A stretch of DNA of 39,612 bases, taken from positions 7,032 to 46,643 of the forward strand of contig PMCH01000363.1 in the NCBI GenBank assembly GCA_003154055.1, read 5' to 3'. This DNA is from Acidobacteriaceae bacterium. GTDB taxonomy: Bacteria; Acidobacteriota; Terriglobia; Terriglobales; Acidobacteriaceae. Below are positions 4,875-20,745 of this stretch, piece by piece. The notes below the pieces were generated by a model that was not told the DNA's origin, made no database searches, and saw only the letters and a program-made list of their open reading frames with translations. Positions within the stretch are counted from its first letter, which is position 1; each line of letters begins with the position of its first letter. The position numbers were made by a program, and so were the translations under genes.

Positions 4875-6992
4875 TCAGCGACCGTGGCCTGGCACAAAAC
4901 GGCAGAGCTTGTCGTCGAGCCGACATGCTTGATCGTATTCTTTCCCCGCTTGTTCGGCGCGCCCCAGGCGCTGATACGCGAATCCCAGATTGAGGTGCGC
5001 TTCTGCGTAGTCAGGATCGAGCTTGAGTGCGCGCTGGTACGTGGCGACCGCCTTCTGTAGGCGGTCAGTCCGACTGTAAGAGATTCCCAGAAAATTGAAG
5101 AGCGGTGCCTCGTCCAAGCCAAGGTCGGCGGCCTTTCCCAGATGCTCAGCGGCTTCTGAATAATTCTGCTGCTGAAATTGGAGCATGCCCAAATCGCGAC
5201 GAACAGGGGCGAAGTTGGGCTGAATCGTAATAGCTTTCTCGTAGGCGCGAACGGCTGCCGGTTTGTCCGTCCGTGATTCCAGGTGGCCGAGTTCATACCA
5301 CACCCGGTAATTCTGGGAATTGAATTTCAGGGCCCGATCAAGCCATTGCCGCGCCTCTGAGGGATTCCCCAGTTTGTCCAGAGCGCGTGCCAGGCCTGTC
5401 ATGGCCTGATCGAAATTCGGATTCAATTCGAGACACTTCTTCAGTTCGGTCGCCGCTTCCTCCCAGTTCTGACGGCGGAGAGCGGTCTCTCCCAGCAGGA
5501 ACGCGACGATGTAGATATCCGGGTCCTTCTCACGCACGGCGGCGAGCAGGGCCTTCGCCTTTTCATCATCTCCGATCTGGAAGGCATCGGTAGCTTTCAG
5601 AATTGCGTTGAATTCCCAGAGTTTCTCTTTCGGATCTGCCTGCCCGCTGCCGACGACTGCGTCACCCACCGGCGAGTGATAGGCCATGTACCCGAGGGCG
5701 CGCAGTTTTTCGGCGGCATCGGGGTTTAGCTTGGCGTCGGTCACAGCGGACGTTTTCGCCGCGAACGGATTTACCTTCAATCTCTGTTGCAGCTTTCCTT
5801 CTAAGACTGCGACGGTTGCAGTCTGCTCTCCGGCGCGGTTTGTCTTTTCTTCGGGATCAGCGACCATGTCATACAGTTCCGGTTGCGGCGCCTCAATGTA
5901 GTGGTATCGGCCTGTTTCCAGCGCGCGCAGAGGACTCCACCCGAAGGAACTGAAAGGATAGAAAGTCTCGCTGTACGCCGCGTCTCTGGCGCCAGCGGCG
6001 GCAAACATGCTCGGCGTTTGAAACTGGGTTTGAATCGAATCCTTCACACCAGCGAGTTGCAATAGTGACGGAGCCACCGCCGCGGTTTCGACGGGATCGC
6101 GGCGACGCTGTGCCTGAATGCCGCTCCCAGCAGGCGGTTTCACGATCAGTGGAACGTGCACAGTGGCGTTGTACACGAAGAATCCGTGCTCATCCTCGCC
6201 GTGTTCGCCCAACGATTCGCCATGATCGCTAAGCGCCACGATCACAGAGGAGTCGTAAAGCTTGTTCTGCTTGAGCCAGGCCATCAGCCTGCCGAGTTCG
6301 TGATCGGCGTACGCGATCTCGCCGTCATATGGATGGCTGCGGTACTCGCTGCGGTAAGGCTCCGGCGGATCATACGGGCTGTGCGGGTCGTACAGGTGCA
6401 GCCAGAGGAAGAACGGCCGCCGTGGAGTTTTCTTCAGCCACGCGATGGCATGGTCTATGCTTTCTTCGGCGCGGCGATCCACCAGCCCGATGTCCTTCTT
6501 CTGGAAGGTCTCTGCCGAAAAAGCGTCGTCGTAGAAATCGAATCCGCGTCCCAACCCCCAACTGCGATCGAGCACAAACGCGCTCACCACCGCGCCCGTC
6601 GCATAGCCTGCCTGCTTGAAAGACTGTGCCACCGAGCGGAACTGCGGCGCCAGCGGCTGTCCGGTGAAGTCCTGTACGCCGTTCTGAAACGGATACGTAC
6701 CCGTAAGAATTACCGCGTGCGAGGGCCAGGTCAGCGGAACCTGCGAAATGGCGCGCTCAAACACGACGCCGTCCCGCGCGAGTCCATCCAGCGTGGGAGT
6801 CTTGACGGCCTCCGCGCCGTAGCAGCCCACATGGTCGGCGCGCAGCGTGTCGATCGTGATCAGGATGACACTGGGATGTGGGTTCGACTTAGTCGGTGCC
6901 GCTTTCGCTGGAACAGCATTCGCAAGAGGACCCAGGCCCGCGGCCAGTGCGGCAGCCATCACGTGACGAAAAATGGGGGAGCGGTGAACCAT
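4875..6992 (-). CDS. Alkaline-phosphatase-superfamily (sulfatase-like) hydrolase fused to C-terminal TPR repeats, paralog 1
   Basis: The tracked ORF reaches 7175, but the ATG at 6992 (MVHRSPIFRHVMAAALAA...) gives a signal peptide and sits 4 nt after the stop of the upstream paralog. Metal-site motif ILITIDTLRADHVGCYG. Nucleophile region PLTWPSHAVILTG. DHGESLGEHGE motif. C-terminal TPRs. Confidence 0.8.
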   Translation of the reverse strand: MVHRSPIFRHVMAAALAAGLGPLANAVPAKAAPTKSNPHPSVILITIDTLRADHVGCYGAEAVKTPTLDGLARDGVVFERAISQVPLTWPSHAVILTGTYPFQNGVQDFTGQPLAPQFRSVAQSFKQAGYATGAVVSAFVLDRSWGLGRGFDFYDDAFSAETFQKKDIGLVDRRAEESIDHAIAWLKKTPRRPFFLWLHLYDPHSPYDPPEPYRSEYRSHPYDGEIAYADHELGRLMAWLKQNKLYDSSVIVALSDHGESLGEHGEDEHGFFVYNATVHVPLIVKPPAGSGIQAQRRRDPVETAAVAPSLLQLAGVKDSIQTQFQTPSMFAAAGARDAAYSETFYPFSSFGWSPLRALETGRYHYIEAPQPELYDMVADPEEKTNRAGEQTATVAVLEGKLQQRLKVNPFAAKTSAVTDAKLNPDAAEKLRALGYMAYHSPVGDAVVGSGQADPKEKLWEFNAILKATDAFQIGDDEKAKALLAAVREKDPDIYIVAFLLGETALRRQNWEEAATELKKCLELNPNFDQAMTGLARALDKLGNPSEARQWLDRALKFNSQNYRVWYELGHLESRTDKPAAVRAYEKAITIQPNFAPVRRDLGMLQFQQQNYSEAAEHLGKAADLGLDEAPLFNFLGISYSRTDRLQKAVATYQRALKLDPDYAEAHLNLGFAYQRLGRAEQAGKEYDQACRLDDKLCRFVPGHGR

Positions 6993-10908: not shown

Positions 10909-11306
10909 CGGAGACCGCCATCGGCATGTTTTCGTCAGTTGAGACGACCTCTGCGCTCTGGAGCTCTTGGGTGGCGCAGCGCTTTTAGCGCTGCGGTAGA
11001 TGCCTCATTTATGATGTCCGGCTTTAGCCGCTGAGGGTCCGCGCTCAAAGCTAGCCCGCCTGCAGCGGATCAGTTGCTGGACAGTGCCGCCTGCCGGTAC
11101 TGTCCTAAAACTGCGTTGATAAAAAATGAGCAAAGGAAACCCGCCATCAAAGGCGGGTTCTAAGCCGTGCGATGCCAAGCCTTGATTGTCACGGCAGAGT
11201 TCACTGCTACAATTAGGACAGTACCCGCCTGCCTTATTTACCCAATTTTCATATTCCTGCTCTATGCTCATGATGTCCGTCAGCGTCCCAAATCGTTCCA
11301 CTTTCC

Positions 11307-13717: not shown

Positions 13718-16700
13718 CTAGTGAAAATCATGCGACACCGTCTCCGCCTGGGTTACGCGCAGCGGCGCAACTTTCTCCGCCCGGACGTGGATCACATTGT
13801 CCTGGTTCTGCAGAATTCCTTCGACCATCAAAAAGCGCTCGGAAATCAATAAGACGCGGTTCTTCTGGAGAAGGTCGGGGGCGATGATCGTATTCGCGAT
13901 TCCCGTTTCATCTTCCAGGCTCATGAACATCATTCCCTTGGCCGTCCCCGGACGCTGGCGGGCTATCACGCATCCCCCGATCCGCAACCGCCGCCCGTTC
14001 GGTACCTGCGCCAGATCGGAAGCGCGATAAATACCCATCTTCTTCATTTCCGCGCGGCGGTATTGCATCGGATGCGGCCCAACCGTCAGCCCAGTACCCC
14101 GGAAATCCGCCATCAGGCGTTCTTCGTGAGTCATAACTTCGAGCGGCGAGCCGGCGTCCAGTTCAGAAAGCTCATCCAGCAAAGGCCCTGACCAGCGCAC
14201 CGCCCGCTCCACCTGCCACAACGCATCACGGCGGTGAAACTGCTTTGTACTGGCCACTAACCACTGACCACTAGCCACTGAATTCAGCGCCCCAATTTCC
14301 GCCAGCGTCGTCAGTTCATCCTCGCGCAACTCCGGCACCCGCCGCGCCAGATCCTGAATCGATATAAACGGCGCCAGGCTGCGCTCCCGCACCAGCGCCT
14401 GCCCCGCAGGCTCCCGCACCCCACGCGCGTAGTTCAACCCCAACCGGACAGCAAACTCAGTCTTGTTCTCATTAGTAACCTCCTTATGCTTGTCATCCTG
14501 AACGGAAGCCTCAGTTTCGCGAAGCGAAACTGAGGCTGGAGTGAAGGATCTCTGTATTTGTTTTTTGCCACTGCCGCTCTCACTGGCTACTGGCCACTGG
14601 CTACTGGCTGCTGTTTCTAACGTACATTTCCAGTCCGACTTCGTCACATCCATCGGCAGCACCTTCAACCCATGCCGCTGCGCGTCTTTCACGAGCGTTG
14701 CCGGATGGTAGAACCCCATGGGTTGATTGTTCAGCAGCGCCGCCGTGAACGCCGCCAGGTAGTGGCATTTCAAGTAAGCGCTGGCATAGGCAATCAGCGC
14801 GAAGCTGGCGGCGTGCGACTCCGGAAATCCATAAAGTGCGAACGATGTAATCGACTGGATGATCTGCTCCTGTGTCTCGCCGCGGATTCCATTGCGTGTC
14901 ATGCCGGCACGCAGTTTCTCTTCAATGGTCTTCATCCGGGCTTCGGAGCGCTTGAATCCCATGGCGCGGCGCAGTTCCTCGGCTTCGCCTCCGGTGAAGT
15001 TCGCGGTGATCATCGCCATGCGCAGCAATTGCTCCTGGAATAGCGGCACGCCCAATGTGCGTCCGAGCACGGTTTCGAGCGACGGGTGCGGATAGGTGAC
15101 TTCTTCTCTGCCCTGCCGCCGCTTGAGGAACGGATTCACCATGTTGCCCACAATCGGCCCGGGCCGAATAATCGCGACCTGCACCACAATGTCGTAAAAC
15201 TTCCTGGGCCGCAGCCGCGGCAGGCACGACATCTGCGCCCGGCTTTCCACCTGGAACATACCGACCGTGTCCGCCTTTTGCAGCGCGGAATACACCGCGG
15301 GATCATCGGGTGGAAGATGTGCCAGATCCACTTCTTCTTTGTTGTGATCGCGGATCAGTTCGATCGAGTCTTTCAGCACCGCCATCATGCCCAGGCCGAG
15401 CAGGTCAACCTTGATGATCTTCATGTCCGCGCAATCTTCTTTATCCCACTGCACCACCACGCGCCCCGGCATGGACGCCGGTTCCAGCGGCACAACCGAA
15501 TCCAGCCGTCCCTGGCAGATGACCATGCCGCCCGAGTGCTGGCCCAGGTGTCGCGGCAAATCCTGGGCCGAGAGACACAGCTCGAAATATTTGCGGATGC
15601 GCGGATGGGTAAGATCGAGCCCGGCGTCGCGCAGGCGCCGGTCGAGCGCATCGTGCTCATCGCGGAATTCCCAGGTCGCGACCGCCGTCGAGATACGTTT
15701 CAAAGTGTCGGCGTCAAAGCCGATCGCTTTGCCCATTTCGCGCGCCGCCATGCGGTTGCGATACGTAATGACATTCGCCGTCATCGCCGCCCCGCGCTGG
15801 CCATAGCGCTGGTAGAGATACTGAATGACGCGCTCGCGCTCGTTGCCGCTGGGCAGGTCGAGATCAATATCGGGCCACTCGCCCCGCTCTTCGGAAAGAA
15901 AGCGCTCGAACAGCAGTTCCATGGCGATCGGATCCACCGCCGTGATGCCAAGCGAATAACAGACTGCGCTGTTGGCGGCCGATCCGCGGCCCTGCGCCAG
16001 GATGTTCTGCTCGCGGCAGAAGCGCACCAGGTCCCACACAATCAGGAAATATCCTTCCAGGCCGAGCTTCCCGATCAGCGTCAGTTCGCGCTCAATCTGG
16101 CGGCGGGCACGGCTTTTCAGCTCCTGCGTTGCCCGGCCATATCGAGTTTGAAACCCTTCCCGCGTGCGCTCGCGAAGAAACGAAACCATGGTCTCGCCCT
16201 CCGGCACCGGATAGCGCGGGAATTCGTATCCCAAATCGTCCAGCGTGAATTCGAGCCGCGAGGAGAGCTCCGCAGTATTCGCGATTGCTTGTGGAAGGTC
16301 GGCAAAGAGAGCGCGCATCTCGCGCGGCGACTTGAGATACCGTTCTGAGTTGCGCGCCAGCAACCGCCCGGTGGTGGCCAGCGTGCGGTGATGGCGGAGC
16401 GCGGTAAATGCGTCCGCCAGTTCCCGCTCGCGCGGCACGGCGTAGTTCACGCCGTTGGTGGCCAGTAACGGCAGCCCGAGCGCTTGCGCGATCTCGATCG
16501 CAACCCGGTTGCGATATTCTTCGTCCCGGTGAAAATGCCGCTGGAGTTCGATATAAACATTTTCTCGGCCGAATATTTCCGTTAGCCTCTGAACTGATTT
16601 CAATGCCGACTGTGCCCCGCCCCGCGCCAGCGCAGCCGCCAACGGCCCCTCATCTCCGCCCGTCAGGCAGATTAATCCTTCCGCGTGCTCGGAAAAATCC

Positions 16701-17098
16701 TGACCCTGCGCCGTCCCACCTTCTTTCTGCCCCGCGCGCAGCTTCATCTTCGTGATCAGCCGGCAAAGGTTTTGATATCCAGTACGCGATGCGACTAACA
16801 GCGGCAGACGGCAAGCACCCTCGCCAAAGTGAAATTGACTTTCATTTTCAACTCGTGTTCCACGTGGAACATTTTTGGACGCAAACAAAGGACTTAGGCT
16901 CACTTCCGCCCCGATATGTGCCTTGGTCCCCGCCTTCTGAGCCGCCAGGTGAAAACGAGGCGCCCCATACACTCCATCGCGATCCAGCAGCGCCATCGCC
17001 GGTATTCCAAGGCCGGCACACACTTCGACAAGTTTCTCTGGAAGCGATGCCCCTTCGAGAAAACTGAAGGCGGAGCGGAAGTGAAGTTCGATGTACAC
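13718..17098 (-). CDS. dnaE2: Error-prone DNA polymerase III alpha-type subunit DnaE2 (ImuC)
   Basis: GTG start at 17098. N-terminal PHP motif (YIELHFRSAFSFLEGAS). Pol III alpha core motifs (PDIDLDLPS, GLLKVDLLGLGMM-like KVDLLGLGMMAV, GVPLFQEQ, PMGFYHPATLV). Last gene of an imuA-imuB-dnaE2 arrangement. Contains repeat-derived in-frame insertions (see findings). Confidence 0.9.
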   Translation of the reverse strand: MYIELHFRSAFSFLEGASLPEKLVEVCAGLGIPAMALLDRDGVYGAPRFHLAAQKAGTKAHIGAEVSLSPLFASKNVPRGTRVENESQFHFGEGACRLPLLVASRTGYQNLCRLITKMKLRAGQKEGGTAQGQDFSEHAEGLICLTGGDEGPLAAALARGGAQSALKSVQRLTEIFGRENVYIELQRHFHRDEEYRNRVAIEIAQALGLPLLATNGVNYAVPRERELADAFTALRHHRTLATTGRLLARNSERYLKSPREMRALFADLPQAIANTAELSSRLEFTLDDLGYEFPRYPVPEGETMVSFLRERTREGFQTRYGRATQELKSRARRQIERELTLIGKLGLEGYFLIVWDLVRFCREQNILAQGRGSAANSAVCYSLGITAVDPIAMELLFERFLSEERGEWPDIDLDLPSGNERERVIQYLYQRYGQRGAAMTANVITYRNRMAAREMGKAIGFDADTLKRISTAVATWEFRDEHDALDRRLRDAGLDLTHPRIRKYFELCLSAQDLPRHLGQHSGGMVICQGRLDSVVPLEPASMPGRVVVQWDKEDCADMKIIKVDLLGLGMMAVLKDSIELIRDHNKEEVDLAHLPPDDPAVYSALQKADTVGMFQVESRAQMSCLPRLRPRKFYDIVVQVAIIRPGPIVGNMVNPFLKRRQGREEVTYPHPSLETVLGRTLGVPLFQEQLLRMAMITANFTGGEAEELRRAMGFKRSEARMKTIEEKLRAGMTRNGIRGETQEQIIQSITSFALYGFPESHAASFALIAYASAYLKCHYLAAFTAALLNNQPMGFYHPATLVKDAQRHGLKVLPMDVTKSDWKCTLETAASSQWPVASESGSGKKQIQRSFTPASVSLRETEASVQDDKHKEVTNENKTEFAVRLGLNYARGVREPAGQALVRERSLAPFISIQDLARRVPELREDELTTLAEIGALNSVASGQWLVASTKQFHRRDALWQVERAVRWSGPLLDELSELDAGSPLEVMTHEERLMADFRGTGLTVGPHPMQYRRAEMKKMGIYRASDLAQVPNGRRLRIGGCVIARQRPGTAKGMMFMSLEDETGIANTIIAPDLLQKNRVLLISERFLMVEGILQNQDNVIHVRAEKVAPLRVTQAETVSHDFH
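14249..14283. repeat. Heptanucleotide tandem array (5 units, ACTNNCC) inside dnaE2
   Basis: ACTGGCC ACTAACC ACTGACC ACTAGCC ACTGAAT read directly. On the coding strand it encodes NSVASGQWLVAS. Confidence 0.9.
14508..14536. repeat. Perfect 13-bp-stem hairpin inside dnaE2 coding sequence
   Basis: GCCTCAGTTTCGC gaa GCGAAACTGAGGC. Flanked by GTCATCCTGAAC... and ...GTGAAGGATCTC, and lies in the atypically long TLE...AVRLGL segment of DnaE2. Confidence 0.9.
14582..14609. repeat. Heptanucleotide tandem array (4 units, ACTGGCY) inside dnaE2
   Basis: ACTGGCT ACTGGCC ACTGGCT ACTGGCT. Encodes SSQWPVAS on the coding strand. Confidence 0.9.
16856..16871. repeat. 16-bp perfect palindrome inside dnaE2 (PHP-domain region)
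   Basis: TGTTCCACGTGGAACA. Encodes NVPRGT within an extra segment (SPLFASKNVPRGTRVENESQFHFGEG). Confidence 0.85.
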
Positions 17099-17106
17099 AG
17101 AAAACA

Positions 17107-17186
17107 GTTTCTGGTTTCTAGTTGCTGGTTTCTATTCGCCATAGCTCTTAATTTCAGAAGACAAGAAACCAGCAACCAGAAACTAG
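17107..17186. repeat. Inverted pair of heptamer arrays (GTTNCTN units) filling the imuB-dnaE2 spacer
   Basis: Left arm GTTTCTG GTTTCTA GTTGCTG GTTTCTA (17107-17134). Right arm AGAAACCAGCAACCAGAAACTAG (17164-17186) is its reverse complement: a 13-bp perfect pairing plus 7 bp after a 7-nt bulge. The right arm overlaps the imuB stop; the left arm ends 8 nt from the dnaE2 GTG start. Confidence 0.85.
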
Positions 17187-18619
17187 TCGTACGTTCCTTC
17201 CACCAGCCACTGCACATTCAATTTGTCCTGTGCCAGCCGGTACAGCACGAGGCTGTTTTCAGAGGACACGGCGATGTCCCATTCTTCGCGCGACCAGCCT
17301 TCCTGCTCCGACCAGTCGCCGGAAGAACGCCACGGGCCCGCGCTCCACACAATCTCTCCGGCAATTTCCGGACGGTGAATGCATTTCATTCGCACCGGCC
17401 TGCCCTCACGCACACTCACCACCGCACGCAACGGCGGGCGAAACAGGCGCAATGCGATCACCGTGCTCATTCGTTCTTCCGCGTTCGCGGTCGCTTCGAG
17501 TACGTCGTCTTGTTCTTGCACGGCCACATCCTTCTTCTGTTTTCCAGGCGGCTTGGTTTCAGGCTCGACTGGCGCAAAGTGCCGCATCTCGAATGCGCCT
17601 TCGCGATGCGTGTCCAGCAGTTGCGCCGACCCGACTCTTTCCTCGCCGACGATTCCAGCAATACGTGCCAGCGTGAGTTCCAATTTTTCCGGCTCCGGAA
17701 AAATTGGCTGGAACAACCCGCTCTGCGTGGCCCGCGGCCGCGCCGGCTCCGCCGAAAGATGGACCTTCACAATCGGCGCTCCCGGCGGATGCGCCTGCAA
17801 ATCCAGTTGCAGCAGCTTGAGGAAGACCTTTGCATCCAGCATGGGCAACGGCAGACGCAACGTGCGCGTGAATGTGGAGGTCTGCGTCGGATCGCAATCT
17901 TCATGCCTCTGGGTGAGTTCCAGTTTCAAACGCAATTCCTGTGCAGCCAGCGCACGCTCTCCTAATCGCGCGCACACCTGTTCCAACATGCGGTTCAGCA
18001 GAAACGCCAGCGAGCGCAGGTTGCGGACACCCCAGCGATCAAACGTCTCCAGCCAGCGCCTCGCCTGTTCTGCATCGGAAGAAAAGCTCTCGAACAAAAC
18101 ATCCACGGTCAAATTTCCCAGACGTTGCGCTTCGTGCCCTTCGGGAATCAGAGTGACTCCGGGGAACCCGCGCGCCGCGAGCAGAGCGGCATCCGGATTC
18201 GCAGCCACGGCGACATTCGTTGCCAGCCCCATCTGTGAACAGCGCTGCGCCAGGCCGCGCGCAATTTTCGGCAGCGGGCCAAGCAGCGGTTCGAGTCCGA
18301 AAAGATTCAGAAGCACGGTGTCGGGCGCGGTGTCCTCCACCTCCGGAGAGAACGACTGCGCGCAATCGAGCAGCGCGGCGTGAGCGGACGCCTCCTGCGC
18401 CTCCGATCGTGCGCGCAGTACCAATACCTCCCACGCTTCCAGTTGCGCTTTCGTCGCTCCCATCTCGACGTCCATCTGGCGGGCGTGTTCATTCATGGCC
18501 ATCACTCTCTCCAGCGGAGGGCGGCCGGCAAGTACAGCTAACGCCCGCGTGCGAAGATCCGGCTCACAGCGGATGATCGCTTCGGCAGGAAAGTCGGGAA
18601 TGAAGACGCAGGAAAACAT
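17183..18619 (-). CDS. imuB: ImuB, Y-family-polymerase-like mutasome subunit
   Basis: N-terminus MFSCVFIPDFPAEAIIR is typical of ImuB. 478 aa. Positioned between imuA and dnaE2. Confidence 0.8.
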   Translation of the reverse strand: MFSCVFIPDFPAEAIIRCEPDLRTRALAVLAGRPPLERVMAMNEHARQMDVEMGATKAQLEAWEVLVLRARSEAQEASAHAALLDCAQSFSPEVEDTAPDTVLLNLFGLEPLLGPLPKIARGLAQRCSQMGLATNVAVAANPDAALLAARGFPGVTLIPEGHEAQRLGNLTVDVLFESFSSDAEQARRWLETFDRWGVRNLRSLAFLLNRMLEQVCARLGERALAAQELRLKLELTQRHEDCDPTQTSTFTRTLRLPLPMLDAKVFLKLLQLDLQAHPPGAPIVKVHLSAEPARPRATQSGLFQPIFPEPEKLELTLARIAGIVGEERVGSAQLLDTHREGAFEMRHFAPVEPETKPPGKQKKDVAVQEQDDVLEATANAEERMSTVIALRLFRPPLRAVVSVREGRPVRMKCIHRPEIAGEIVWSAGPWRSSGDWSEQEGWSREEWDIAVSSENSLVLYRLAQDKLNVQWLVEGTYD

Positions 18620-18626
18620 GGGGAAC

Positions 18627-18682
18627 CAGTAGTCAGTAGTCAGTCGCTGGTTGCTAGCCGCTAGGAGCTAGAAGCTAGTGGC
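18627..18682. repeat. Heptanucleotide tandem array (8 units) filling the imuA-imuB spacer
   Basis: CAGTAGT CAGTAGT CAGTCGC TGGTTGC TAGCCGC TAGGAGC TAGAAGC TAGTGGC. It occupies 56 of the 63 intergenic nt. Confidence 0.9.
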
Positions 18683-19621
18683 TTATCCTGCCCACTTGGC
18701 ATGGCTCGCAAAACTCACGACTGCCTGCGGCTGCTTGCGCTCCAGACGCGAACGCAACAACTCTGCCGTGATTTCGAATTGGTCCAGCAATTCCGCATGT
18801 CCCGGCCGGCCTGCTGAGAGCTGACAGCTGACAGCTGACAGCTTTTCCCTCGCAACCTGTGACCTGTGACCCGTGACCTTTACCAGCACCGACGAACAAC
18901 TTCCCGCAATCGGCTGTTGTTCCAGGACCAGCAGCACCGTCGGCGTATGCTCAATGGCGCGCCGAAAACGGAACCATGACGCCAAGGAAATTCGCCGCGC
19001 GCTCCGCACCGGGATGTCTCCCAGATCGAGCACGATCATTCCGAAACCATTGCTCTGCAGCAGCAGATCGGTCACTTTGAGCACCTGTTCGATCCGCGAC
19101 TCCCAACCCCGTCGCTGGTTGGCTTCTCTTTGGATCTCTACCTGAATTTTTCCCTGATGAAAATTTCGGCCACTGCATTCTCCGACTGGACTGAGAACCG
19201 GGGACCGAGAACTGAGAACTGTTTTCTTGCACCGCACCCAAAGCAAACGCTCCATGGCGATCTGCGCCGCCATCGCCGACCCAGGATCCAGCGCGTCGCT
19301 CGCATCCACCAGCGCGCACACTTCTCCGCGTTGCGTGGCCTGGGCAAGCGCGGAGAGCAGAATGCTGGTCCTTCCCGACGATGCCGCCCCACAAATTTCC
19401 GTCAGACAGCCGCGAGGCAAACCGCCGGTGAGCGCGTCCAGTTCGCGAATGCCACACGAAACCATCTCCGGCGCGGGACGAACATCCAGGCGCGAAGCGG
19501 GAGCAACCGCCGCCAGTTTCGGCAGCGCGCTCAACTGCGCCAGCAACGCTGCACTGGAGCGGAGAGGAAAAATAAAAGGGCGGCCAACGGCCGCCGATGA
19601 GAACACCGGAGAAGCAGACAT
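18683..19621 (-). CDS. imuA: ImuA, RecA/SulA-like mutasome subunit
   Basis: GIRELDALTGGLPRGCLTEICGAASSGRTSILLSALAQAT (degenerate RecA-like P-loop region) and LLWVRC. SD GAGGAAG upstream of the ATG at 19621. First gene of the cassette. Confidence 0.75.
   Translation of the reverse strand: MSASPVFSSAAVGRPFIFPLRSSAALLAQLSALPKLAAVAPASRLDVRPAPEMVSCGIRELDALTGGLPRGCLTEICGAASSGRTSILLSALAQATQRGEVCALVDASDALDPGSAMAAQIAMERLLWVRCKKTVLSSRSPVLSPVGECSGRNFHQGKIQVEIQREANQRRGWESRIEQVLKVTDLLLQSNGFGMIVLDLGDIPVRSARRISLASWFRFRRAIEHTPTVLLVLEQQPIAGSCSSVLVKVTGHRSQVAREKLSAVSCQLSAGRPGHAELLDQFEITAELLRSRLERKQPQAVVSFASHAKWAG
18813..18879. repeat. Two adjacent heptamer arrays inside the 3' part of imuA
   Basis: GCTGAGA GCTGACA GCTGACA GCTGACA (18813-18840) and CCTGTGA CCTGTGA CCCGTGA CCT (18856-18879). 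They encode ...VKVTGHRSQVAREKLSAVSCQLSAG... Confidence 0.9.
19191..19221. repeat. Heptamer array inside imuA
   Basis: CTGAGAA CCGGGGA CCGAGAA CTGAGAA CTG. Encodes part of KKTVLSSRSPVLSPV. Confidence 0.85.
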
Positions 19622-19680
19622 ACTTCCTCAAAATTTCAGGGAACTCAGAGAGGCCGATCAGCCCCGGCGAGATAATTAAT

Positions 19681-19697
19681 ATTCGCTTTTTATTCGC
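19681..19697. promoter_or_regulatory. Candidate SOS (LexA) operator upstream of imuA
   Basis: Direct repeat ATTCGC-N5-ATTCGC (= ATTC-N7-ATTC), 60-76 nt upstream of the imuA start. It resembles the GTTC-N7-GTTC direct-repeat LexA box of Alphaproteobacteria, also reported for Acidobacterium capsulatum, with one mismatch per half-site. Confidence 0.25.
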
Positions 19698-19813
19698 CTT
19701 TATGGATTCTGATCCCAGGACTGGAAGTTGTCAAGGCTGAGCCGTTAAAAAATGGGGAATTCCGGTAATCCATAGATACTACCTATACTTACACCGTTTT
19801 CTCGTTATTGGTG

Positions 19814-19871: not shown

Positions 19872-20216
19872 ATGATCGCCTCCGAAAACAAGCGCGCCAG
19901 CCAACCCGGATGGCAACATCCCTTGCTGGCGCTGGCTGAGGAGGAACTGGATCTGGTGCTGCAACTGGTGCTGGCTTCAGGGTCGTTGAAAGATCTGGCG
20001 CAGGTCTACCAGGTCAGTTATCCGACGATCCGGCTGCGCGTGGATCGCGTCATCGAGCACCTCCGGCAGTTGGGGAACGGCACCAAGCCGGATCCGATGA
20101 TGCAGTTGCTGGCCGAACTGGTCGAGCGTGGAGAAGTTACGGTCTCCGCGGCACGGTCGGTGCGCGACCTCTACCGGCAGAAGGAGAACTCAAATGATGA
20201 TGGAACCGTGGTTTGA
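19872..20216 (+). CDS. DUF2089-like helix-turn-helix protein (lacks the N-terminal zinc ribbon)
   Basis: LAEEELDLVLQLVLASGSLKDLAQVYQVSYPTIRLRVDRVIEHL resembles the DUF2089 HTH core as remembered (...GNIKEVEKELGISYPTVRNRLD...). ATG at 19872. Confidence 0.6.
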   Translation: MIASENKRASQPGWQHPLLALAEEELDLVLQLVLASGSLKDLAQVYQVSYPTIRLRVDRVIEHLRQLGNGTKPDPMMQLLAELVERGEVTVSAARSVRDLYRQKENSNDDGTVV

Positions 20217-20670: not shown

Positions 20671-20745
20671 GGCGCTATCGTCTAGGGGTTAGGACGGAAG
20701 ATTCTCAATCTTCAAACCCGGGTTCGATTCCCGGTAGCGCTACCA
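20671..20745 (+). tRNA. tRNA-Glu (anticodon CUC)
   Basis: Manual cloverleaf. Acceptor GGCGCTA/TAGCGCT (first pair G-U). D arm TC GTCT AGGGGTT AGGA C, as in E. coli tRNA-Glu. Anticodon stem GAAGA/TCTTC with loop TT-CTC-AA. T arm CCGGG TTCGATT CCCGG. Encoded discriminator A plus CCA. Confidence 0.9.

Follow-up and report, generated by a model that had tools for sequence, protein, structure and literature searches.

Heptanucleotide tandem repeats and small palindromic elements have been described from bacterial genomes in several forms. The short tandemly repeated repetitive (STRR) elements of cyanobacteria are tandem heptanucleotides (Mazel 1990), which were also reported from inside the gene for RNase P RNA (Vioque 1997; as cited in PMC2858038), and heptamers form an over-represented class of long simple sequence repeats (SSRs) in many bacteria, for which slippage related to the polymerase footprint has been proposed (Rehm 2015, PMC4692102). 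As heptanucleotide contingency loci, neuO of Escherichia coli K1 (PMC13001214) and the HMW1A promoter of Haemophilus influenzae (PMC8262952) are mentioned. In mutL of Salmonella and E. coli, one-unit slippage in a 6-bp repeat of three copies gives a natural, revertible defective allele (Chen 2010, PMC2955026). Repetitive extragenic palindromes (REPs) of the GTAG/CGTC type and Rickettsia palindromic elements (RPEs) insert in frame, with a bias to DNA synthesis and repair genes including dnaE2, uvrA and recB (Di Nocera 2013, PMC3733652); REP insertions in dnaE2 were located at residues 934-971 in Opitutus terrae and at residues 166-246 in Sphingomonas wittichii (PMC3733652). Repeats of a mismatch-repair gene that toggle the mutation rate, and palindromic repeats that favour repair genes, are thus already known. 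Here we analyse heptamer arrays in the imuA-imuB-dnaE2 mutasome cassette of an Acidobacteriaceae bacterium, located on a 39,612-nt stretch of DNA (assembly GCA_003154055.1, contig PMCH01000363.1, positions 7,032 to 46,643), which we refer to as the window. Our literature search turned up no account of heptamer arrays in Acidobacteria, of a mutasome-wide enrichment of such arrays, or of unit-slippage alleles of imuA.

Tandem Repeats Finder (TRF) detected nine period-7 arrays in the window, all of them within imuA-imuB-dnaE2, which makes up 15% of its length, and none in the other approximately 33 kb. This bears out the statement of an earlier note on this DNA that no comparable arrays occur elsewhere in the window. 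The arrays are real, and the case for them is stronger than the note had made it, but its description of a strict 7-bp periodicity does not hold, as matches amount to 73-100%; the arrays comprise 2.6-4.7 copies. A separate periodicity scan placed all seven of its period-7 runs in 13718-19621, and among the periods 4-15 none but 7 and its double, 14, clustered in the cassette. Mononucleotide shuffles of the window yielded 0.045 period-7 runs per window. The assignment of the three genes was likewise confirmed: the dnaE2 product reaches 1237 bits against NF004225 (cut-off 939) with residues 2-1126 covered and contains PHP, DNA_pol3_alpha, finger and HHH_6 domains, the imuB-like product matches IMS and IMS_C, and the imuA-like product has RecA-fold and ImuA matches, its ImuA_translesion match of 40.8 bits lying under the model cut-off of 150. 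The order imuA-imuB-dnaE2 is kept in approximately 140 related loci. Judged by the source names of homologs, the host belongs to the order Terriglobales of the Acidobacteriota.

Across Terriglobia and Blastocatellia, heptamer repeats (frequently in the form of foldbacks) gather in the mutasome, at permissive sites and in frame. We sampled 160 dnaE2 loci, 80 from contigs of one genome per species and 80 from metagenomes, each with up to 6-10 kb of flank, and used these flanks (in total approximately 1.5 Mb with approximately 1,400 genes) as background; most of the sequences compared are metagenome assemblies, in which consensus contigs hide minority alleles. Period-7 arrays were 11.4-fold enriched per base in the genome set (204 in cassettes vs 41 in flanks) and again 11.4-fold in the metagenome set (179 vs 14), which gives 383 vs 55 for the pooled loci (binomial p 2e-103), and the cassette was denser than the flank in 57 of the 63 loci having at least 8 kb of flank. 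Period 8 was also enriched (10.7-fold in the genome set, 6.5-fold in the metagenome set), and periods 6, 9 and 12 were not enriched in either set (approximately 0.6-1.4-fold). TRF applied to a Pyrinomonadaceae locus (L045) agrees with the enrichment. Arrays occur in 99 of the 160 loci, including Terriglobales, Acidobacteriaceae, Ca. Sulfotelmatobacter, some Ca. Angelobacter and Pyrinomonadaceae, and are absent from most Bryobacterales, Solibacteraceae, Acidiferrales and Polarisedimenticolia loci and from one Methylomirabilota locus. Flank arrays amount to 0.036 per kb and are mostly intergenic or located in 5' leaders. One locus, L143, has unusually many of them; at its positions 10967-11077, 1.5 kb downstream of dnaE2, an inverted pair of GGGAGTT and CCCTACT units lies in frame in tgt, the gene for queuine tRNA-ribosyltransferase.

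Within the cassettes, the arrays are confined to a small number of places: one loop of the PHP domain and two sites around the helix-hairpin-helix (HhH) domain in DnaE2, two sites each in ImuA and ImuB, and both gene junctions. dnaE2 holds 202 of the 383 arrays, exclusively at residues 60-110, 800-890 and 900-960, and its catalytic core (residues 130-780) is free of arrays across all 99 positive loci. The imuB-dnaE2 spacer contributes 62 arrays, imuA 43 (residues 120-160 and 240-280), imuB 42 (residues 240-280 and 360-450) and the imuA-imuB spacer 20; a further 10 lie just downstream of dnaE2, one upstream of imuA and three elsewhere. The units differ between genomes (for example AGTTCTC, AAAGTCC, CCCGTTT, AAATCGA, CAGAGGT, ACCGAGT, AACTGAG and ACTGGCC) and recur within a genome, in L007 both inside and outside the cassette. 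CAG or CTG is present in 46% of the units (438 arrays, 160 loci). We also considered a HutP-like binding to NAG-N4: the sense arrays of the window all have YAG at period 7, but units such as CCCGTTT and AAATCGA elsewhere lack YAG, and this candidate was rejected.

The intragenic arrays are translated as extra loops within insertions, as the earlier note had proposed and as the alignments of DnaE2, the comparison of ImuA with repeat-free orthologs and the alignment to E. coli Pol III alpha all indicate. In an alignment of 28 DnaE2 orthologs with 79-100% identity (alignment A1), protein length ranges from 1056 to 1214 aa and length variation is confined to three blocks, which follow AHIGAEV (PHP domain), DWKCTLE and EIGALN, the last two flanking the HhH domain. 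These blocks hold heptamer-coded peptides (SGQWPVAS or, in the opposite orientation, TTDHWPL), peptides coded by elements resembling miniature inverted-repeat transposable elements (MITEs; VILSEAKDLC...QMHRSFTPASVSLRE... and YSPQRHRDTEK...SSVPPCLRGEK), or nothing. At the first hot spot, residues 69-92 of the window DnaE2 are an insertion relative to E. coli Pol III alpha (5fku) in a sequence alignment, which was taken in place of an AlphaFold model built from A1, as the model had a mean pLDDT (predicted local distance difference test) of 39 and was not used. This insertion is common to close relatives, whereas its place is taken by heptamer arrays or MITEs in more distant ones, and it contains a perfect 14-nt palindrome, GTTCCACGTGGAAC, at 16836-16849. 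The MITE of the second hot spot is in frame, folds with a z-score of -3.8 and belongs to a peptide family found at the same DnaE2 site in P0005, P0008, P0010, P0024 and P0059, with many other orthologs lacking it; Pfam HHH_6 spreads DnaE2 residues 810-942 over 84 profile positions. At the third hot spot (variable region, A1 columns 1100-1200), the window array is a solo arm with a fold z of -1.3, which orthologs pair with an inverted TTDHWPL-type array. In ImuA, the inserted segments at residues approximately 131-175 and 249-272 carry the arrays, and repeat-free ImuA orthologs are devoid of both.

All insertions in the mutasome genes are free of stop codons and have a length that is a multiple of three, on which ground a translational bypass or hopping over the insertions was rejected. 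Variants of the unit, such as CAGTGGC among CAGTAGC, fall exactly where an in-frame TAG would arise, and because these variants remove the stop codon, the arrays are under selection for an open frame. At the same time, the units at one site change together: a single ImuA site reads LSAVSSQLSA, PSAVSSQPSA or HSAFSTQHSV in different orthologs, and AGCTGTC occurs four times in the window, L001 and L003, whereas L082 has four copies of AGCATTC. To judge from these sequences, such joint change of all units reflects concerted evolution of the DNA itself, as opposed to conservation of the protein.

The arrays evolve by slipped-strand mispairing, in which changes by three units give loop-length variants and changes by one or two units give frameshift alleles that segregate in nature. 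The clearest case is provided by L163 and L164, two loci from two different samples whose identity to the window exceeds 99.5% over 7 kb and which lack exactly one AGCTGTC unit (18837-18843); the sole other indel between them and the window is a deletion in the imuB of the window itself. The 7-nt loss frameshifts imuA from LSAVSSQ onward and replaces its last 45 residues, among which are columns invariant in 28 orthologs with the motif ELLDxFEITAELLRSRLERK, and we infer that the product is a null allele. The ImuA cluster of the window species comprises 15 sequences on 46 contigs, four of which carry the 299-aa forms P0246 and P0247. Both the 3-unit and the 4-unit state occur with F68 as well as with L68, and the existence of all four combinations implies that the unit change recurred or was exchanged by recombination. 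We searched ten more 90% clusters for further variants of the imuA C-terminus. L165 differs from L166 by a gain of 14 nt (two units) in the array homologous to 18813-18843, again with a frameshift, L172 differs from L171 by an in-frame gain of 21 nt (three units) at an array of the 18855-18879 type, and P0307, P0314 and P0376 show in-frame 7-aa indels in the C-terminal region of ImuA. The earlier note's prediction that gain or loss of units would frameshift imuA is thus realized in wild strains, by -7 nt between near-identical sequences and by +14 nt in another lineage, and unit-number differences between contigs are a fact.

Other length differences proved to be of a different kind. P0294 (L168) has a 1-nt deletion beside the array, the more divergent P0311 (L170) has lost 26 nt across the array, and the apparent deletions of L162 are runs of N; none of them was accepted as unit slippage. 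Frame breaks in the 160 representative loci were likewise rejected as evidence of switching, as they are mostly not at arrays and occur in nanopore-derived metagenome-assembled genomes. Nearly all of these representative genomes keep their arrays in frame, and the frame breaks are few. At more than 99% identity, no array indels were present in L161 or in the pairs L085/L086 and L017/L120 (99.3-99.7% identical), and the dnaE2 arrays are invariant in the 13-member species cluster. Between sequences of 88-90% identity, the hot spots gain or lose whole hairpins or MITEs, and a difference of 21 nt is seen in coding arrays. Perfect runs have a mode of three units and a maximum of six in coding sequence and eight in a spacer. 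As a side observation, the ImuA of L161 (P0248) has six substitutions within 12 nt (19174-19185 in the window), adjoining the array 19190-19221, which change SPVGECSG to SPAAKRGG; the same peptide change is present in P0245, and the remainder of imuA is nearly identical. From its sequence, this patch looks like a small conversion or template switch.

Many arrays are arms of foldbacks. An inverted partner (at least 12 of 14 positions, within 200 nt) accompanies 39% of the coding arrays and 59% of the spacer arrays, compared with 2.5% in the control, and perfect hairpins of at least 14 bp are 4.6-fold enriched in cassettes. Whole elements can be copied, because L045 contains two copies of one 125-nt element, including arms and loop, at two C-terminal dnaE2 sites. 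The CAGTTCT unit of the window array 19190-19221 also builds the imuB-dnaE2 spacer hairpin in L003 and L007. A foldback with octamer arms, (CACAGAGN)n / CCTCTGTG, is 33-fold enriched (70 cassette hits vs 3 flank hits) and is probably behind much of the signal at period 8; we noted it in L088 (cassette approximately 5776-5890) and 37 other loci, translated as ...SPQRHRDTEK...SSVPLCLCGEK. MITEs of the GTCATCCTGAGC type are just 1.9-fold enriched.

The imuB-dnaE2 junction has a stop/start overlap in repeat-free lineages and a hairpin where arrays are present. Among 142 loci, 45 have a spacer of less than 30 nt, most of them abutting or overlapping by 1-2 nt, and the remaining spacers measure 34-398 nt, about two thirds of which fold with z <= -3. 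In L003, the stop codon and a 9-nt pre-start segment are separated by precisely a 62-nt heptamer hairpin, which the 89%-identical L088 does not have. The spacer RNA of the window folds with -41.2 kcal/mol (z -5.2, with 0 of 200 shuffles as stable); in this structure, the imuB UAG is located at the 5' base, and the dnaE2 GUG takes part in pairing at the 3' base. The inverted arrays between imuB and dnaE2 therefore do form the long, stable stem that the earlier note had envisaged, but this does not end 8 nt before the GTG: the stem ends at approximately 17114 and the GTG itself is paired. The second arm is also longer than the 17164-17186 given there, running from approximately 17155 to 17186. 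Going by the fold, a ribosome that translates imuB to its last codon could free the start of dnaE2 and so preserve an ancestral coupling, and the GTG start without obvious Shine-Dalgarno sequence fits translational coupling of dnaE2 to imuB. The imuA-imuB spacer (18620-18682, minus strand) is filled by arrays that begin right after the imuA stop and has a fold z of -0.2; with the exception of the MITE 14455-14560, the other window arrays fold no better than shuffles. Rfam matched no family within the cassette. The features of the window are compiled in Table 1.

Table 1. Mutasome genes, repeat arrays and related elements of the window (positions counted from its first nucleotide; unit sequences marked sense are read in gene direction)
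Feature	Position	Strand	Evidence or remark
dnaE2 (error-prone Pol III alpha, 1126 aa, GTG start)	13718-17098	-	NF004225
Array, sense YAGTGGY x4.7, dnaE2 hot spot 3	14249-14281	-	translated VASGQWLVAS
MITE-like palindrome GTCATCCTGAAC...GTGAAGGATCT, 14-bp inner stem, dnaE2 hot spot 2	14455-14560	-	translated ...QIQRSFTPASVSLRETEASVQDDKHKE...
Array, sense CAGTRGC x4.6, adjoins MITE, dnaE2	14582-14613	-	translated SSQWPVAS
dnaE2 hot spot 1, 24-aa low-GC insertion, PHP-domain loop (aa 69-92)	16823-16894	-	A1 columns 115-230
imuB-dnaE2 spacer, nearly all two inverted heptamer arrays	17099-17182	-	RNA forms 20-bp stem
Array, imuB-dnaE2 spacer	17107-17133 (to 17134)	-	TRF
Inverted partner array, imuB-dnaE2 spacer	17155-17183 (runs to ~17186)	-	TRF
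imuB-like Y-family gene (478 aa)	17183-18619	-	IMS, IMS_C
Degenerate array CAGTAGT, imuA-imuB spacer	18627-18644	-	TRF
Degenerate array GCTAGAA, imuA-imuB spacer	18660-18678	-	TRF
imuA-like gene (312 aa)	18683-19621	-	RecA fold, ImuA_translesion
Array, sense AGCTGTC x3 + AGCTCTC, imuA	18813-18843	-	TRF 4.4 copies, 95% matches; translated LSAVSCQLSAG
Array, sense GGTCACR x3.6, imuA	18855-18879	-	TRF; translated VTGHRSQV
Array, sense CAGTTCT x4.6, first ImuA insertion	19190-19221	-	TRF; translated VLSSRSPVLS
Operator-like direct repeat GCGAAT-N5-GCGAAT, sense GCGAATAAAAAGCGAATA	19680-19701	-	candidate SOS box, no arrays
Putative promoter TTGACA (at 19734) / CAGAAT (ending 19706)	19680-19734 region	-	promoter scan

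The imuB deletion of the window, at approximately 18013 (L161 2712-2879), is in frame and bounded by 9-nt direct repeats CGCTGGCGT. The missing 168 bp (56 aa, SLPEVPVSERLGQQGIRLQKLARG...LLEPLA) are carried by L161, L163 and L164, which are more than 99.5% identical to the window, and the exact ImuB sequence of the window is not present in the protein collection. Judged by its ends, the gap looks like a microhomology deletion that removes a conserved Y-family segment, and the window imuB may be either a crippled allele of natural origin or the result of a collapsed assembly. The in-frame deletion agrees with, and suggests, weak constraint on the operon. Upstream of imuA, GAAY-N7-GAAY is found in 29 of 114 loci (background 0.02 per 250 nt), about 25 of which carry GAAYAAAARGCGAAY at -54 to -124. 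The alphaproteobacterial LexA box is GTTC-N7-GTTC, whose layout the repeat upstream of imuA resembles, and this direct repeat is a candidate SOS operator for the clade.

Some further observations concern gene calls and neighbours. Gene callers gave the same dnaE2 DNA three different starts, resulting in products of 1126 aa (GTG), 1092 aa (M35) and 1009 aa (M118); the conserved N-terminus YIELH...SFLEGAS, common to all aligned orthologs, is kept only with the GTG start. We rejected the 1009-aa and 1092-aa forms as frameshifts, since they are alternative start calls on identical DNA. Annotation thus matters at this locus, where dnaE2 starts vary among records and a frameshifted imuA allele can easily be misinterpreted. 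Divergent from imuA lies a small DUF2089 helix-turn-helix gene at 19872-20216 (plus strand), a position kept in L161-L164, L168, L169 and L171; this gene might be regulated together with the cassette or act on it as a local regulator. A tRNA gene (20671-20742, plus strand; RF00005, 63.6 bits) lies approximately 1 kb upstream of the cassette.

What could have concentrated these repeats in one operon? The explanation that we prefer, with about as much confidence as doubt, is that they are slippage-prone heptamer SSRs, STRR-like in form, whose concentration in the mutasome operon reflects biased supply and retention and not a purpose-built switch. The 11-fold concentration would stem mainly from these two biases. 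If the operon is transcribed only during SOS and otherwise dispensable, insertions and occasional nulls would cost little, and in-frame insertions in a gene still under some selection would be protected against the imprecise deletions by which intergenic repeats are removed. As an outcome, the mutasome would be polymorphic across populations, at a low rate and reversibly, in its ON/OFF state and in length. We give supply and retention the most weight because the arrays also fill the spacers, because other foldbacks share the sites and because the tracts are short. Several observations weigh against this explanation. Tolerance combined with shielding from deletion does not obviously explain the specificity: hot-spot array density exceeds that of ordinary intergenic DNA, and the tgt pair of L143 is the only clear in-frame array pair outside the mutasome genes in the flanks, compared with 287 in-frame mutasome arrays. 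The only enriched periods, 7, 8 and 10, are non-triplet ones. Coding arrays are no more degenerate than non-coding arrays, which is unexpected if slippage nulls are selected against, and the -7 allele, on approximately 9% of the contigs in one species cluster, is commoner than would be expected of a deleterious variant. Because specificity, the non-triplet-only enrichment and the non-degenerate coding arrays are poorly explained by supply and retention, a selected mutability switch stays a serious rival, even if we consider it unlikely. According to this rival, the arrays are kept because slippage reversibly toggles the mutasome at the population level. Spelled out as a tentative model, the arrays could serve as a reversible genetic fuse maintained by second-order selection, in which slippage to the off state lowers mutational load, slippage to the on state restores inducible mutagenesis, and both states are always held. 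A switch would account for arrays that are found specifically in every gene of a three-gene functional unit, in two classes and with unrelated units, that are enriched only at non-triplet periods and that persist through concerted evolution without decay. Natural frameshift alleles by exact unit loss or gain in two lineages, the four combinations of F68/L68 with unit number and the removal of the invariant ELLDxFEITAELLRSRLERK motif by the frameshift point in the same direction, as does the precedent that three repeat copies are enough in mutL (PMC2955026). Set against this are the shortness of the perfect runs, the lack of unit change in the dnaE2 arrays of the species cluster and in the two pairs of 99.3-99.7% identity, and the nearly invariable in-frame state of the representative genomes. 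Many arrays moreover lie in spacers or in the 3' region, where slippage cannot cause a frameshift, non-repeat MITEs occupy the same sites, and the gain from a second off-switch is unclear for an operon that is probably already tightly repressed by the candidate operator. The contingency switch raised by the earlier note has real support in the natural frameshift alleles, but tracts that are short and imperfect, invariant dnaE2 arrays, reading frames that are nearly always open and repeat-filled spacers do not fit it, and a dedicated high-rate contingency switch is unproven.

The stability of the spacer hairpin, which holds both the imuB stop and the dnaE2 start, raises the question of regulation at the RNA level, where stems in the polycistronic mRNA would damp or gate expression through cleavage by double-stranded RNA-specific RNases, stop-proximal ribosome stalling or a start masking that couples dnaE2 to imuB. 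The frequent strong folding of long imuB-dnaE2 spacers and the enrichment of hairpins of at least 14 bp are in keeping with such a role, and so is the sharp ending of the arrays at the operon borders, with one array upstream of imuA and 10 directly downstream of dnaE2, the promoter being free of them. Most coding arrays, however, are without an inverted partner, five of the six window array regions tested fold no better than shuffles, the close relatives L087 and L088 manage with spacers of 4 and 9 nt that lack the hairpin, Rfam has no match in the cassette, and nothing accounts for stems made of 7-nt units, which makes RNA-level regulation as the explanation quite improbable. The boundaries of the array distribution, which coincide with the transcription unit, could also be read as an SOS-linked signature, whereby slippage or template-switch errors, or insertions targeted to single-stranded DNA, would accumulate preferentially in DNA that is heavily transcribed at a time when the SOS response and the mutasome are active, and the operon would scar itself. 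Periods of 7-8 nt would suit the proposed polymerase active-site footprint (PMC4692102), and palindromic repeats of other phyla favour uvrA, uvrB, uvrD, recBCD, polA and dnaE2 (PMC3733652). We nonetheless regard such a signature as very unlikely, given that the divergent DUF2089 gene, which shares the control region, has no arrays and that there is no array gradient into the flanks. The mutasome is also known for base substitutions and -1 frameshifts and not for short duplications. Chance or an assembly artefact is extremely unlikely: many loci are indeed metagenome-assembled, some by nanopore sequencing with its indel errors, and the L162 variant consisted of runs of N, but the pattern is replicated in two independent collections, 99 loci and many studies, shuffled windows hardly ever yield such runs, and four contigs carry the -7 allele, among them the two inspected ones, which come from different samples and have near-identical surrounding DNA.

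Error-prone polymerase cassettes are central to stress-induced mutagenesis, resistance and adaptation. Here, the mutation machinery itself has slippage points built in, and wild strains differ by the exact gain or loss of units that break imuA. The enrichment is of phylum scale and statistically overwhelming, with non-triplet repeats in frame in every mutasome gene. If it is selected, it would represent a new way of regulating evolvability in a highly abundant soil phylum, and if the fuse model holds, contingency would have evolvability itself as its target in place of a surface structure. Were the enrichment a by-product, it would point to a hitherto unknown bias by which short repeats are targeted to, or retained in, SOS-expressed DNA, which could explain the observations of REPs in repair genes, too.

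Among the systems described for other bacteria, the contingency loci share with the mutasome arrays a unit that is not a multiple of three, and a change of unit number alters expression or frame. Classical contingency tracts are long and perfect and comprise tens of units. They switch at high rates and control surface structures, unlike the 3-5 imperfect units found here in a damage-tolerance operon, and a long perfect tract as expected of a contingency locus was not found in the loci sampled. With the mutL switch, the arrays have in common a very short tandem repeat inside a gene that affects mutation rate and the existence of natural one-unit variants; there, however, a 6-bp unit is gained or lost in frame and alters a protein lid of an anti-mutator, whereas here a 7-bp unit causes a frameshift in an inducible mutator. 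The heptamer SSRs of Xanthomonas (GGGAATC) and Nostoc (PMC4692102) are similar in having approximately four units, some inverted pairs and variation between close relatives, but are G-rich, quadruplex-capable, intergenic and genome-wide, and are neither in frame nor gathered in one operon.

The REPs and RPEs likewise form hairpins and are translated as extra loops at permissive sites. In contrast, the arms described here consist of tandem units of 7 or 8 nt, many arms are solo, and the arrays extend over three genes and both junctions in approximately 100 species; inspection of the element ends revealed no obvious GTAG/CGTC tag or target duplication, and transposase genes (RAYT/TIRYT) were not searched for. 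The resemblance to STRR sequences, to which the earlier note had drawn attention, holds for form and not for shared sequence or lineage. The host here belongs to the Acidobacteriota and not to the heterocystous cyanobacteria, no common unit equals an STRR unit, and the arrays are gathered in a single operon, in coding frame. The STRR units CCCCAGT and CAACAGT contain a CAGT core, and the 7-nt units of the mutasome often have an ACTG/CAGT core as well. Both kinds of repeat consist of few tandem 7-nt copies and can reside inside functional genes at sites where they are tolerated.

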